Below are positions 7,109 to 13,699 of a stretch of DNA of 13,699 nt, one piece after another; position 1 is the stretch's first letter, and the number at the start of each line of letters is the position of its first letter. Location: IMG/VR virus record IMGVR_UViG_2537561934_000011; one strand, given 5' to 3'. Under the pieces are notes generated by a model that saw nothing but the letters and a program-made list of their open reading frames with translations, was not told where the DNA came from and did not search any database. A program made the position numbers and the translations under genes. This DNA comes from a virus. Taxonomy: Duplodnaviria > Heunggongvirae > Uroviricota > Caudoviricetes.

Positions 7109-7431
7109 AACTGCAGACACGCCGTATGCAAGACGTGCTGCGGTTGGCTGATGCACTTTCGAGAGTGTATGTATTGAATAATTTCCAACCGTCATTAATT
7201 TTATTTATTTTTTGCATGAGAGGATTTGAACCTCCGAGCCTCGACACCTTATGACAACGCGATATTCCCTTGATGACCGCTATGCGCCAAAATAACCAAT
7301 TGATAAATAAGTTGATTTTAATTAGTTGGAAGCAAGTCAGGTCAAATTCAGCATGCCGCTCTCTGTATCGGGTAGTTAAATTTTTCTATAACTGATAGTA
7401 ATATGTTAAAACTCACACAGATAAATTATCA

Positions 7432-8880
7432 TTGCTCAACAAGTATAATGGAGTTCCCGTGGATACAGCAGAACATGATGGCAAATTTGCTTGGGCTAGT
7501 TTTTATGAGGCTTTTGCCAACGCGTTACTGACTTGGCGAAATCGTAGAGATGAATTAGTCAAAGGTATTCATCTAATTGCCTCAGGTGTGGAAGGAATGT
7601 CCCATCTGCAGGACAAATCTATTATGGGAGAGATCTTTCCCTTAAAAGACATTTGTCCGTTTACTACTATGGGCTTGTTCAATCGTAACTTGACCGACAG
7701 CAATCGCAAAATTATTGCTGCCAAGCTAGCGAATTTGTTGGGCGTGAACGAACCGATTCCTGACTCCTTTGCCGGAATCCCGCTGTTGAATAACCAAAAA
7801 TCTTGGTTCTTTGGTTATGAAAAGTCACGCGACCCTAATGACATTGAATGCTTGTGGGAAATGTTCTCGCAGGCAATGACCTTTGCGGATAACCAGAATA
7901 CTAACTCTGCAGACTTCACTGCCGCATATGACATTGCTTCTACAGTAATGAATGTCGGTTGGAATCTCACCATGGGGTTGTACTGGACCCGTCCTTGGTT
8001 CTACCCTACTTTAGATAGCCAGTCGCAGTATTACATTCAGACAGTGTTAAACATTAAGATCATTAAAAACGGGGCAAAAGGTCGCTGTAGTGGACAAAGT
8101 TACCTGAGTCTTATGCGGGCGCTGAACGAGGTCTTTACCCAACCAAACTATCCGGTTCATTCTTTCCCAGAACTTTCTTTATCAGCGTGGAATACAGATC
8201 TTAGCCAGTCTAAAGATGAGGTGGCAAATAGAACGTGGAAAGCCTCTTTACTGAATAAAATTAAGGCGTTATGCCTGAAAAAAAATGGCCCTTATTTCAC
8301 TGCTTCGGAGTTGGAAGAAAACTACTTGGACGTATTCAAGGTAGAGCATCCTGAGAGCAAAACAGTTACAAGCTCAATCTACTTTTATCTACAGAAACTA
8401 TGCAATGATGATGAGTTAAAGTCCCTTGAGTCCGGAAATTATGAATACCTGAATTTTGAGAAAAATGAATCCCAGACGATAACTGAGGAAACTGTCGAAG
8501 AGAGTGCGCCGTTGCCAAAACTCACTCACGTTCCTTATGACATCAGTCATCTGGTGCAGGATGGCTGTTTCTTGGAAGAGGCTAAGATCCAACTCACACT
8601 TCAGCGCCTGATCGACAAGAAAAACCTGATATTACAAGGACCACCCGGAACTGGAAAAACCTGGTTAGCGCGACGTCTGGCGTACTGCTTGATGGGAGAA
8701 AAAGCACCTGAGCGTATTAGCGCGGTGCAATTTCACCCGAACCTCTCTTACGAAGACTTTATTCGCGGCTGGCGTCCAGGTAAAGAAGGGCAATTGACGC
8801 TAATTGATGGACCTTTTGTAAATGCAATCAAAACTGCAGTCAATAATCCTACCTCGAAATATGTGGTGATAATTGAAGAG
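7432..8880 (+). pseudogene. mcrB: McrB-like AAA+ GTPase gene, 5' part (long N-terminal domain, Walker A), interrupted by IS1 at 8881
   Basis: Walker A GPPGTGKT (8638-8661), then ARRLAYCLMGEKAP..VQFHPN.SYEDFIRG and the start of Walker B (VVIIEE) before the IS1 end; this tracks the K-12 McrB GTPase domain as I recall it. The preceding roughly 370 residues are unrelated to the K-12 McrB N-terminal domain. Start is uncertain (TTG at 7432, or GTG at 7459 with GGAG upstream). Confidence 0.8.
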
Positions 8881-8895
8881 GGTAATGACTCTAAC

Positions 8896-9399
8896 TTATT
8901 GATAGTGTTTTATGTTCAGATAATGCCCGATGACTTTGTCATGCAGCTCCACCGATTTTGAGAACGACAGCGACTTCCGTCCCAGCCGTGCCAGGTGCTG
9001 CCTCAGATTCAGGTTATGCCGCTCAATGCGCTGCGTGTAATGTTTGCTGATTACGTGCAGCTTTCCCTTCAGGCGGGATTCATACAGCGGCCAGCCATCC
9101 GTCATCCATATCACCACGTCAAAGGGTGACAGCAGGCTCATAAGACGCCCCAGCGTCGCCATAGTGCGTTCACCGAATACGTGCGCAACAACCGTCTTCC
9201 GGAGCCTGTCATACGCGTAAAACAGCCAGCGCTGGCGCGATTTAGCCCCGACATAGCCCCACTGTTCGTCCATTTCCGCGCAGACGATGACGTCACTGCC
9301 CGGCTGTATGCGCGAGGTTACCGACTGCGGCCTGAGTTTTTTAAGTGACGTAAAATCGTGTTGAGGCCAACGCCCATAATGCGGGCAGTTGCCCGGCAT
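8896..9399 (-). CDS. insB: IS1 InsB reading frame (InsAB' transposase by -1 frameshift)
   Basis: Canonical IS1 InsB sequence ..[41 protein letters not shown].. Confidence 0.85.
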
Positions 9400-9593
9400 C
9401 CAACGCCATTCATGGCCATATCAATAATTTTCTGGTGCGTACCGGGTTGAGAAGCGGTGTAAGTGAACTGCAGTTGCCATGTTTTACGGCAGTGAGAGCA
9501 GAGATAGCGCTGATGTCCGGCAGTGCTTTTGCCGTTACGCACCACCCCGTCAGTAGCTGAACAGGAGGGACAGCTGATAGAAACAGAAGCCAC
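9318..9593 (-). CDS. insA: IS1 InsA, 91 aa
   Basis: [43 protein letters not shown].. matches canonical IS1 InsA as I recall it. Confidence 0.9.
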
Positions 9594-9648
9594 TGGAGCA
9601 CCTCAAAAACACCATCATACACTAAATCAGTAAGTTGGCAGCATCACC

Positions 9649-10191
9649 ATTGAAGAGATTAATCGTGGCAATCCGGCGCAAATCTTCGGTGAAACACTCA
9701 CGTTGATGGAAGCAGATAAACGCACGCCGACTGAGGCATTATCTCTTTCCTATCCTAAAAATGATGATGAAAAAATATACATTCCTGAGAATCTATATAT
9801 CATCGGTACGATGAATATTGCAGACCGCTCACTCGCACTACTTGACCTAGCGCTGCGCCGTCGTTTCGCGTTTATCGATCTAAAGCCAGCTTTTAATGAC
9901 GCGTGGAGAAACTGGGTAAATTATAATTACGCAATTGATTTTGACATGTTAGCATTCATCAAATCTCGACTGACGGTACTTAACGATATGCTGGCAAAAG
10001 ATGTTACCTTAGGACCACAGTTTTGTATCGGTCACAGCTATGTCACCCCAGCTATCGGCCAAAAAATCAACGATGCCCAGGCTTGGTATGAACAAGTCGT
10101 TGATACAGAGATCTGCCCTTTGCTCGCCGAATATTGGTTCGATGCTCCAAATAAAGTCGATGAAGCCAGAAAAGTGTTATTAGCAAAATGA
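9649..10191 (+). pseudogene. mcrB: McrB-like AAA+ GTPase gene, 3' part, in frame with the 5' part once IS1 and one repeat copy are removed
   Basis: Reads (IEE)INRGNPAQIFGETLTLMEADKRT..YIPENLYIIGTMNIADRSLALLDLALRRRFAFIDL.., corresponding to the K-12 McrB segment IIDEINRANLSKVFGEVMMLMEHDKRG..YIIGLMNTADRSLAVVDYALRRRFSFIDI as I recall it. Stop overlaps the mcrC-like start (ATGA at 10188-10191). Confidence 0.8.
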
Positions 10192-11309
10192 CGACAATAA
10201 CCGGGAGTGAGCAACATACAGCATCACGTATTCCCATGCGAAATATCTGGATGCTGATGCTGTACGCTTCAGATCTGTTTCGTCAGTTAGGGCGCAATCA
10301 GATCGCAGTAGAAGATAACCCAGCAGAAATCCCCGACCTGGTGGCGACAATCCTCCTTCATGAGATTACGCTGCGCCGACGTCGCAATTTAAATATGGGA
10401 TACCAAACTTGTCATGCGGCCCTGAACCGAGTGAGAGGGCGCATTGACATACTGTATACTGCCAGTCATCAACTACTGGAACGGGGACAGGTTGCCTGCC
10501 ATTTTCAAGACATAACCCTCAACACCCCCCGAAATCGCTATGTTCGCTGTGCGTTAGAACGTCTGGCCTCAATCATAGTGAAACCGTCTTTGGCGGCAGA
10601 TTGCCATTTTATGGCAATATCACTTCGCCGTGAGGGGATAAATGGAGGATATCCTGCCCCCCACGAATTACCCTCAGTGTGGCGTTTTGGACGCCATGAT
10701 GCCGCAGATAAACCGATGGTCGATGCCGCACGATTAGCTTTTGAACTGCTGATGCCGACCGAAGATCAAGGCCAATATCTTTTACCTGCGCCCTCAAATA
10801 ACCTTTACTGGATGAGAAGACTATTTGAAAAAGGTATCGCTGGCTTATATCGTGTACACCTTGCCAAAACAACTTGGCAGGTCTCTGCAGGGAAAGAGCT
10901 GAAATGGGCGTTGAGCGATCAAAGTGCAGGTAGTGCAGAGATTTTCCCGACAATGAAGTCAGACATTATTCTGGAACACAAGACTGCCCAGCGGCGTATT
11001 ATTATCGATACCAAATTTAATTCGATTCTGACAAAGGGTTGGCATCGGGAGCAATCACTACGTAATGGCTATATTTATCAGCTATATACCTACCTTAGAA
11101 CACAGGAGAACAAGACGGATCCGCTTTCGCTCAATGCCGCTGGTCTTCTACTTCATCCAGCTGTTGGCTATATGCTTAATGAGTATGTTGTCACTCAGGG
11201 ACATAAGATCCATTTTGCTACAGTAGATATGACGGTAGATGCTAAAGCAATTAAAAAACAATTGCTGGCAATAGCCCATGATTGTGCAGGAGTCGCGGTT
11301 GATGACTAA
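10188..11309 (+). CDS. mcrC: McrC-like subunit (PD-(D/E)xK nuclease partner of McrB), 373 aa
   Basis: Translationally coupled to the mcrB-like gene. Length and position fit McrC. Candidate catalytic motif SDIILEHK..RRIIIDTKF (D at 11007-11009, K at 11013-11015). Confidence 0.75.
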   Translation: MTTITGSEQHTASRIPMRNIWMLMLYASDLFRQLGRNQIAVEDNPAEIPDLVATILLHEITLRRRRNLNMGYQTCHAALNRVRGRIDILYTASHQLLERGQVACHFQDITLNTPRNRYVRCALERLASIIVKPSLAADCHFMAISLRREGINGGYPAPHELPSVWRFGRHDAADKPMVDAARLAFELLMPTEDQGQYLLPAPSNNLYWMRRLFEKGIAGLYRVHLAKTTWQVSAGKELKWALSDQSAGSAEIFPTMKSDIILEHKTAQRRIIIDTKFNSILTKGWHREQSLRNGYIYQLYTYLRTQENKTDPLSLNAAGLLLHPAVGYMLNEYVVTQGHKIHFATVDMTVDAKAIKKQLLAIAHDCAGVAVDD

Positions 11310-11788
11310 CCATCCTATAAGGCACTGGCTGTAATATAATCAATAGTTTCAATTAAGTAGCTGTTATCCGTGCTTAGTCATCATATGACGCACCACGGTC
11401 TAATTTTCCTGCTCATACATTGATATATCCTTGTCGAGTCCGGAAAGTCGCAGTCCACTATTAGGTATACCGATTGCCAGCACCAAAAGCTTCTTTGTGA
11501 TTATTATATCGGGGAATGCCTATTTTTTAGTGACAATATCAGATAGCAATTAATAAGCGGTGCCGGTAATGGATGTTATGTTTAATGTATAGACACAGCC
11601 ATCATAAACTAAACGTCTGTTGTTCGCTCATAACCGACATTTATCTCAGTTATGGAAGATAATTATGTATGCAGATAATGGGGCAGACAGTCGTGGAGTA
11701 AACAAGGTTTTGCACTGCTTGGCGGCATCGTTATCTTATTTTTAATTATGTGCCTCTTAACATAAGTTGGGACAAAACAGAGACACAT

Positions 11789-11819
11789 AAGGTCTCACAA
11801 AGGTCTGCAAGGCCTCACA
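11789..11819. repeat. Three tandem 11-bp imperfect direct repeats AAGG(T/C)CT(C/G)CA(C/A)A
   Basis: Read directly: aaggtctcaca / aaggtctgcaa / ggcctcaca. One-helical-turn spacing, about 200 bp on the prophage side of the icd junction. Confidence 0.4.
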
Positions 11820-12010
11820 TGTATTGAGATGTTAATAAAATGTAGACTTGTAATTTGGATATAAATGGTAGAGAAAACCTTTCCCCAAAATAAAAACGAA
11901 CGTCAATGAAATCAAACGGTTGAATAAAGTTGATTTTGGCTAATAAAAAAACAATAAAATAATTTTTATCATTAAATATCAATGACTTGAACTTAATGTT
12001 TTTATATACT

Positions 12011-12172
12011 GTTACGCCACATGGGTTGGACCGAAGCCGCAGACCTGATTGTTAAAGGTATGGAAGGCGCAATCAATGCCAAGACCGTAACCTATGACTT
12101 CGAACGTCTGATGGAAGGCGCTAAACTGCTGAAATGTTCAGAATTTGGTGATGCGATCCTCAAGAACATGTA
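12011..12172 (+). pseudogene. icdC: Displaced original 3' end of icd (isocitrate dehydrogenase), marking the right prophage/host junction
   Basis: In-frame translation ..[57 protein letters not shown] matches the Icd C-terminus as I recall it. No upstream icd coding sequence; AT-rich prophage DNA precedes it. K-12 e14 has the same int .. pin, restriction gene, icdC, iraM, ycgX order. Confidence 0.8.
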
Positions 12173-12195
12173 ATCACTACATGTGTTTAATATTG

Positions 12196-12228
12196 CAACG
12201 GGCGTATAACACGCCCGTTGTTTTATTT
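12196..12228 (+). terminator. Intrinsic terminator of icd: 10-bp perfect stem, 5-nt loop, T-run
   Basis: caacgggcgt-ataac-acgcccgttg followed by ttttatttat, 25 bp after the icd stop codon. Confidence 0.6.
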
Positions 12229-12275: not shown

Positions 12276-12599
12276 TTACTTGAGCCCATATGGGCATATT
12301 TTTATAATGCAACTATTATGCAAACATTTATTTGTTATTTTGCTTTCTCCTGGAGGACACTCTTGACTGCTTTTGAGTAGACTCCATAAATCCTTGTTGA
12401 ATGGTGCGATGTTATAAATAGTAATAGGATATTCTTTATCTTTAAGGATAATTCCAGATTTAACCGGTGTAAATATACTGCCAGGAGGGAGAAATATAGT
12501 AGATTGATACCAGATGATCATTTTCATATTACCCCATATGGCTGAAAAAGATATGCCGCATGAAGGTTGAATTATCGTGTCAATTACTATCCACTTCAT
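12276..12599 (-). CDS. iraM: IraM-like anti-adaptor protein (RssB inhibitor), 107 aa
   Basis: Sequence [41 protein letters not shown].. matches my memory of E. coli IraM (YcgW). Length and position after icdC fit the K-12 order. Long AT-rich upstream region. Confidence 0.7.
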
Positions 12600-13294: not shown

Positions 13295-13699
13295 CTAGAT
13301 TAATGGTTTATTATTTTCTACATCTTCAATATATAAAAGCGTATTATCAATGGCGTAGTAACTGCGTTTGTTATGATTAACATCAGTAACCCACCGGAAA
13401 ACGCCCGCGCCTGCTAGTGTTGAACAGTATTCCCGAAATGTAGATTTTCCGCAAATATGAAGCAATGCGGCCTCTTTTATTTTAGCAGGGTTCTTGGTCG
13501 TACTAACTTTTAACAGGTTCCTGGTTCCTCTTAATAACAAAACCGTGTCATCGTGAGTAATAATTCTGATGTTATCCGTAGCCAGATAATAAATGTAATG
13601 TGCAATACGGTGATGTTTTAATTCTGAATAAAACCAGGAGAAGTTTTGCTCTTTTCTCACTTGCTCAAACATCTTTTGAAAAACAACGACCTGATCCAT
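13295..13699 (-). CDS. ycgX: YcgX-like protein of unknown function, 134 aa; start codon is the last three bases of the window
   Basis: Length and position (upstream of iraM, minus strand) match K-12 ycgX. I do not recall the sequence itself well. The ORF could extend beyond the window edge. Confidence 0.55.
   Translation of the reverse strand: MDQVVVFQKMFEQVRKEQNFSWFYSELKHHRIAHYIYYLATDNIRIITHDDTVLLLRGTRNLLKVSTTKNPAKIKEAALLHICGKSTFREYCSTLAGAGVFRWVTDVNHNKRSYYAIDNTLLYIEDVENNKPLI

Follow-up and report, generated by a model that had tools for sequence, protein, structure and literature searches.

Accessory regions next to the phage attachment site (attP) of lambdoid phages are textbook knowledge, and the non-essential b region of phage lambda is found between its tail-fibre genes and attP. 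The stretch of DNA considered here (IMG/VR virus record IMGVR_UViG_2537561934_000011, Caudoviricetes; 13,699 nucleotides, hereafter the window) very probably carries a heavily decayed lambdoid prophage with the integration module of phage 21, located at the 3' end of icd. Positions 7109–12010 of this prophage form an accessory cargo region, or slot, between the late (tail-fibre/invertase) genes and the attachment site, with an exchanged cargo that consists, in this case, of a McrBC-type restriction module broken by an IS1 element. The slot occupies the position of the lambda b region. It resembles the lambda b region, the accessory ('moron') loci of lambdoid phages and the exchangeable effector loci that follow the tail-fibre genes in enterohaemorrhagic Escherichia coli prophages, in that all are located between tail-fibre genes and attP/attR. 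The slot and the lambdoid accessory loci are also alike in being dispensable for the phage life cycle, in varying in content among related phages and in carrying genes of benefit to the host (here sitABCD) as well as anti-phage genes. The phages with this slot differ from those with other lambdoid accessory loci in that they integrate in icd, via phage 21 Int. This slot is a new example of a well-known type of phage cargo region; no previous account of it or of its borders was found in the literature searched, nor any description of a lambdoid accessory locus with 127-bp and ~240-bp borders and a McrBC-variant cargo.

Element e14 of E. coli K-12 (pinE-mcrA-icdC) resembles the window in being located in icd and in having an invertase gene followed by a type IV restriction gene and then an icd fragment. 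A first-pass annotation, made from the sequence alone, considered the window to be an e14-type prophage with a gene order mirroring that of e14. The layout is indeed shared, but the DNA is not: pin (75% identity over positions 6718–7120) and the chromosomal flank are all that the two have in common. The interval proposed as the slot was accurate, as similarity to K-12 e14 stops about 15 bp past the pin stop codon (~7125) and returns at ~12007–12015, the start of icdC, and mcrA does follow pinE in K-12, in an interval of 1,173 bp at the corresponding place. However, K-12 mcrA is a single HNH-type gene, whereas the window has a two-gene system encoding a GTPase and a nuclease. The integrase of the window is identical to phage 21 Int at 377 of 380 residues (99%) but has only 60% identity to K-12 IntE, and its attachment arm is unrelated to that of K-12. 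The e14 gene content (ymf genes, Mu-like baseplate and tail, pinE and mcrA) is absent, the pin remnant being the only element in common. Integration at the 3' end of icd, leaving icdC, is observed in the window, but this feature is shared with phage 21. The integrase, the arm next to the 3' copy of icd and the int-xis-DUF4222-DksA order, which is that of the free lambdoid phage 4A7, are all of the phage 21 type. Judging by these comparisons, the prophage is a lambdoid prophage of the phage 21 type and not of the e14 type.

The right-hand border of the slot is an attachment-site arm of about 240 bp (11768–12005), which is 90–99% identical beside icdC in approximately 1,800 further genomes with other cargo. 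It has 90.8% identity to the phage 21 int/attP record (M61865.1) and is found in 26 lambdoid phage genomes, immediately before the phage icd fragment and the int, xis, DUF4222 and DksA-like genes. As it is conserved beside icdC and matches both the phage 21 record and the lambdoid phages, this arm is the phage side of the attachment site. Arm-type Int sites are expected within it, given the lambda Arm-binding domain of the integrase. A 55-codon open reading frame (ORF) on the minus strand (11815–11982) lies inside the arm, and its counterpart is annotated as hypothetical in several lambdoid phages (for example 4A7 gp32); it is probably not a gene, with a GC content of 29% in DNA conserved as an attachment arm. 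The first-pass annotation described about 700 bp of AT-rich non-coding DNA as part of the cargo. There are indeed 696 bp of non-coding DNA with a GC content of 35% (11310–12005), but the last ~240 bp are the arm rather than cargo. The first ~30 bp past mcrC travel with the module, weak similarity to other cargo types appears from ~11610, and 11310–11767 contains no ORF of at least 50 amino acids and no Rfam match. The left border (7109–7235) contains a hairpin (CTGCAG..CTGCGG) and follows the tail-fibre assembly gene in other prophages. From ~7351, the cargo flank belongs to a unit common to other enterobacterial species.

The contents of the slot were catalogued from about 20 sampled loci and from BLAST counts over 5,426 complete E. 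coli genomes, and were found to vary between conserved flanks. The same two borders (127 bp on the left, ~240 bp on the right) enclose at least five gene sets in E. coli and in free lambdoid phage genomes, in agreement with the suggestion in the first-pass annotation that the position is swappable. The commonest occupant by far is the iron/manganese transporter sitABCD, which is present as sitDCBA alone (BH100, A20, SK0189 and AREA_R504), with a 256-residue protein without a Pfam match (ST131 MB1341, MZ1211, DA61218 and PA45B), or with GNAT, HTH and GNAT genes (MS20659). Together, these three sit types reach no more than ~1,550 genomes, versus 289 genomes for the McrBC-like module; the sit figure is a maximum, as it includes a few prophages located elsewhere on the chromosome. 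The slot of 07-4299 (one sampled) contains DUF2971, DUF4236, DUF3800 and hypothetical genes. The slot of the e14-type prophages, which ends in an e14-type arm, is itself variable, with mcrA in 330 genomes (K-12 type) and an acyltransferase and a LEM-3-like GIY-YIG protein in PEC165 (one sampled), in which the e14-type prophage is in tandem with one of the phage 21 type. The 289 full-length copies of the McrBC-like module are all single-copy and chromosomal, and every sampled one is at the icd locus. The left neighbour of the module is a pin remnant in 233 genomes, and the tail-fibre assembly gene tfa, with no pin, in about 56.

These observations bear on the proposal, made in the first-pass annotation, that restriction systems succeed one another after pin, at a hotspot devoted to defence and confined to e14-type prophages. 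Such a hotspot could accommodate the presence of mcrA in K-12 and of a McrBC-type module here at corresponding places, the protein with a GIY-YIG nuclease domain in the slot of the true e14-type prophage of PEC165, and the match of the DUF2971 protein of 07-4299 to the PADLOC candidate PDC-S31. Nevertheless, it seems unlikely, and as worded it is largely refuted: the integration module is of the phage 21 type, homology to e14 is absent beyond pin, the dominant occupant is a metal transporter, and, in other genomes, the same McrBC module is preceded by tfa, with no pin. The defence hotspots of P2-like phages and P4-like satellites, which are overwhelmingly anti-phage in content (Rousset et al. 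2022, PMC9122126), resemble the slot in having conserved phage flanks and a variable cargo, including anti-phage genes, in temperate elements. The slot differs from them in that most of its cargo is a metal transporter, in belonging to another phage family and in abutting the attachment site. Its content is mostly sitABCD, with PADLOC candidate matches in some of the minor cargo only, and it is not a defence hotspot in the sense of Rousset et al. (2022). The position is a real exchangeable slot, which extends from where the tail-fibre module ends to attP and is neither dependent on pin nor specific to e14 or to defence.

The map of phage 4A7 (tail, sitDCBA, arm, icd fragment, int, xis, DUF4222, DksA) matches the order in the window and places a slot of variable content between the tail-fibre genes and attP. 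In this free phage, sitDCBA lies between the tail genes and the arm, which shows that transmissible phage genomes include the slot and that it is equivalent in position to the lambda b region. Related phages or prophages would most likely exchange their cargo by homologous recombination within the conserved borders; these phages also encode exo and bet. The slot moves fitness genes (sitABCD) as well as restriction genes. Lambdoid prophages integrated in icd are present in ~40% of complete E. coli genomes, and the borders described here could be used to mine more of their cargo.

Ten contigs with an empty site, found by an exact-protein look-up for IraM, have iraM directly beside an intact icd; everything from icd to icdC is therefore inserted DNA, and the McrBC-like genes lie inside the prophage boundary, as the first-pass annotation supposed. 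It is hardly conceivable that these genes are chromosomal neighbours of icd outside the prophage, an explanation already refuted by the empty-site contigs, by the phage-derived arm lying between mcrC and icdC, and by free phage genomes with cargo at exactly this position. In B2-type strains such as ST131 (six sampled loci), the stretch from icdC to ymgL/ycgX lacks iraM and ymgK, indicating that the chromosomal side of the junction also varies between lineages.

The cargo of the window was described in the first-pass annotation as a two-gene module of the McrBC type. This assignment stands for both proteins, but the module is interrupted by IS1 and the slot holds three things. The McrB-like protein matches E. 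coli McrB over residues 366–643 (PDB 6hz4_A, E=4e-77), with MNIADRS aligned with MNTADRS, and its GTPase part corresponds to Pfam AAA_5. The 5' part of the gene encodes the N-terminal domain, a DpnI-like winged helix and the Walker A/B motifs of the GTPase, and the 3' part encodes the MNxxDRS signature loop and the C-terminal portion of the GTPase (alignment to 6hz4_A). McrC matches Pfam McrBC (E=5e-21), the NCBIfam McrC equivalog (355.6 bits, for a cut-off of 338) and PDB 6hz4_M (E=3e-15), with IIIDTKF aligned with the catalytic LIVDAKY of the PD-(D/E)xK motif. The ATG of mcrC at 10188 overlaps the McrB stop codon (ATGA), and this overlap is retained in other species, in which the tblastn alignments begin at this point. 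RefSeq places the start at 10236 (357 amino acids), but the longer, 373-residue form is probably correct.

The module resembles EcoKMcrBC in its GTPase domain (E=4e-77, MNxxDRS loop), full-length McrC with PD-(D/E)xK and overlapping genes. However, the McrB of EcoKMcrBC has an N-terminal domain of ~160 residues that flips out 5-methylcytosine (5mC), whereas the protein of the window has ~365 residues instead: a domain of ~245 residues and a DpnI-like winged helix. An N-terminal 5mC-binding domain of the McrB type was not recovered (NCBIfam McrB, 265 bits for a cut-off of 637; the PDB alignment begins at residue 366), and the N-terminus had no match in local Pfam. The winged helix between the N-terminal domain and the NTPase is present in an AlphaFold model (pLDDT 88.4), and a Leclercia homologue matches Pfam DpnI_C (E=7e-9); the E. 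coli McrB-like protein itself is below Pfam significance for this domain. This variant architecture has already been listed in the literature, as a putative type IV class designated NTD-wH-NTPase/McrC-like, which has the same architecture as the McrB-like protein of the window (PMC11037411, 2024). The passages of that study concerned with the class list it without specificity and, unlike the case described here, without prophage context. The N-terminal domain (residues 2–244) is ~59–60% identical in Chloroflexota, Nitrospirae, Zixibacteria, Deltaproteobacteria and Flavobacteriales, an unusually strong conservation, and the matches in these distant phyla end before the winged-helix region.

In 70 of 80 species loci, from many phyla, mcrC follows the gene for the McrB with this N-terminal domain; none of the loci has Int21 or Tfa next to it, and DNA homology to the copies in Citrobacter, Serratia, Buttiauxella, Erwinia and Lonsdalea is limited to ~7351–11341. 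The conservation of the module as a unit across phyla and the confinement of the homology to this interval indicate that the phage acquired a compact, self-contained module. The compactness of the module in many unrelated species outside prophages, and the sharp end of the homology to other enterobacteria at ~7351 and 11341, could also be expected of an independent mobile element, such as a transposon or small integrative island, inserted into the end of the phage. This seems very improbable, however, as a repeat search around the cargo detected the IS1 duplication only, with neither inverted nor direct terminal repeats, the cargo encodes no recombinase or transposase, and the 289 full-length copies are single-copy and chromosomal, with all the sampled ones at the icd locus. 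A transposon origin was rejected on the basis of the repeat search.

The copy of the module in the window is almost certainly dead. The second of the two IS1 copies has all the attributes of an IS1 element (768 bp, terminal inverted repeats, InsA/InsB frames and a 9-bp target duplication); it is inserted just past Walker B (VVIIEE), the duplication (ATTGAAGAG) is perfect, and the truncated McrB-like product ends 26 residues into IS1. Its removal in silico yields a 651-amino acid ORF identical to the protein of WCHEC020031, from which the window differs elsewhere by a single base. The junction of this IS1 copy was found in none of the 5,426 complete E. coli genomes; the insertion is therefore recent and private to the strain. 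In EcoKMcrBC, McrC depends on McrB rings; as the product lacks the GTPase regions past Walker B and McrC needs such rings, a loss of function is expected. In ML35 (locus positions 1893–5184), the McrB-like gene is hit by an IS3-family element, making at least two independent insertion sequence hits on this gene (ML35 and the window), with mcrC intact in both. Such repeated hits may mean that the module is costly, or may be due to nothing more than insertion sequence activity.

The module is of the type IV (modification-dependent) restriction kind. By analogy with McrBC, the N-terminal part of an intact module would bind some modified foreign DNA, and GTPase rings formed together with McrC would then bring about GTP-driven cleavage. 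It is tentatively suggested that the intact module may be an active modification-dependent restriction system, with a specificity unlike those of EcoKMcrBC (5mC) and DpnI (Gm6ATC), spread by temperate lambdoid phages as b-region cargo, and that its N-terminal domain may be a new and widespread reader of modified DNA. The predicted difference from DpnI is based on the tolerance of the module in Dam+ E. coli. A Gm6ATC specificity conferred by the winged helix was considered and rejected: intact copies exist in hundreds of strains of E. coli, a species that is normally Dam+, making Gm6ATC an unlikely target modification. The McrB variant is a tractable candidate for a new modified-DNA reader.

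Several points weigh against these interpretations of the slot and its cargo. The catalogue of slot contents consists of ~20 sampled loci and BLAST counts rather than an exhaustive extraction, the sit figure includes some sit prophages at other chromosomal sites (for example SCU-316 and A41), and the evidence at the junctions for the proposed mechanism of exchange is limited to alignments. PADLOC has no dedicated model for the module, giving weak REase_II matches to the GTPase part only, and a simple scan revealed no convincing promoter upstream of the McrB-like gene. Restriction by this McrB variant is a prediction by analogy, and the passages of PMC11037411 concerned report the failure of the single published attempt to purify a protein of this architecture. 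None of the findings overturns current understanding, but they do correct the annotation of the window, which contains a remnant of the phage 21 type rather than e14 and a broken McrBC module.

The features of the window are listed in Table 1. In relatives, icd ends 113 bp before the first position of the window, and the order in close relatives is icd, int, xis ... recombinase (pin) pseudogene, AAA/McrB-like gene, mcrC, icd 3' fragment, iraM, ymgK, ymgL and ycgX. A scan for promoters and terminators in the slot gave background levels, except for the native icd terminator, and no RNA family was found anywhere in the window (Rfam).

Table 1. Features of the window, mapped from an ORF listing and the RefSeq annotation of near-identical genomes.
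Feature	Positions	Strand	Basis or remark
int, phage 21 type	1–1143	-	Pfam Arm-DNA-bind_1 and Phage_integrase; marks left (attL) end of prophage remnant
xis	1133–1369	-	ORF and RefSeq of relatives
DUF4222	1509–1748	-	ORF and RefSeq of relatives
TraR/DksA	1796–2014	-	ORF and RefSeq of relatives
DGQHR/DndB-like gene	2168–3232	-	ORF and RefSeq of relatives
DUF1317	3229–3387	-	ORF and RefSeq of relatives
lambda exonuclease	3384–4064	-	ORF and RefSeq of relatives
bet fragment	from 4061	-	ORF and RefSeq of relatives
YdaT	4555–5094	+	ORF and RefSeq of relatives
replication O gene, truncated	5091–5666	+	ORF and RefSeq of relatives
IS1 copy 1	5665–6432	+	IS1 ends; no target-site duplication
pin (serine invertase) pseudogene	6662–7108	+	RefSeq annotation of relatives; alignment to pinE
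conserved left slot border, 127 bp	7109–7235	+	
cargo-specific 5' non-coding flank	7236–7458	+	splits from sit-type loci past 7235
McrB-like gene, IS1-interrupted	7459–10191	+	5' part 7459–8880 (474 codons), 3' part 9649–10191
IS1 copy 2	8881–9648	-	9-bp duplication ATTGAAGAG at 8872–8880 and 9649–9657
mcrC, intact	10188–11309	+	Pfam McrBC, NCBIfam McrC equivalog, PDB 6hz4_M
non-coding DNA after mcrC, 38% GC	11310–11767	.	sequence comparison
phage-21-type attachment-site arm, phage side of attR, 29% GC	11768–12005	.	matches phage 21 record and other genomes
icdC, displaced original icd 3' end, host side of attR	12006–12173	+	RefSeq of relatives; K-12 alignment
native icd terminator	12195–12221		terminator scan
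iraM	12276–12599	-	ORF and RefSeq of relatives
ycgX	13295–13699	-	ORF and RefSeq of relatives

The first IS1 copy, which is identical to the second at merely 702 of 768 positions, is flanked by AACTAACAA and AACAATTCT, with no target-site duplication, and has the truncated replication O gene on one side and the pin remnant on the other, both annotated as truncated. As this IS1 copy joins two truncated genes without a target duplication, an IS1-associated deletion probably took out the entire late region, extending from the C-terminal end of the replication gene into the N-terminal end of pin. The first-pass annotation correctly placed pin to the left of the slot, but this gene is a decayed pseudogene, frameshifted, with an internal stop codon and without an N-terminus (RefSeq annotation of relatives), and an alignment to pinE shows it to be recognisably similar to the e14 gene in its 3' half only. 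None of the 233 genomes with the pin-module junction has an intact pin.

In RMDEC332 (locus positions 1–2871), ISEc60 splits the pin remnant further, and a gene of the acyltransferase family on the opposite strand precedes it; the slot of PEC165 also contains an acyltransferase-family gene. PEC165 (locus positions 1–9801) has two prophages in tandem at icd. The first is of the true e14 type (YmfQ, StfP, Mu-like baseplate), with the acyltransferase, the LEM-3-like GIY-YIG protein and an e14-type arm at its end. Next come an icd fragment and a phage-21-type integrase, the protein accession of which is also that found in relatives of the window. Tandem occupancy of this kind at icd could be a route by which an e14-like pin recombined into an element of the phage 21 type.

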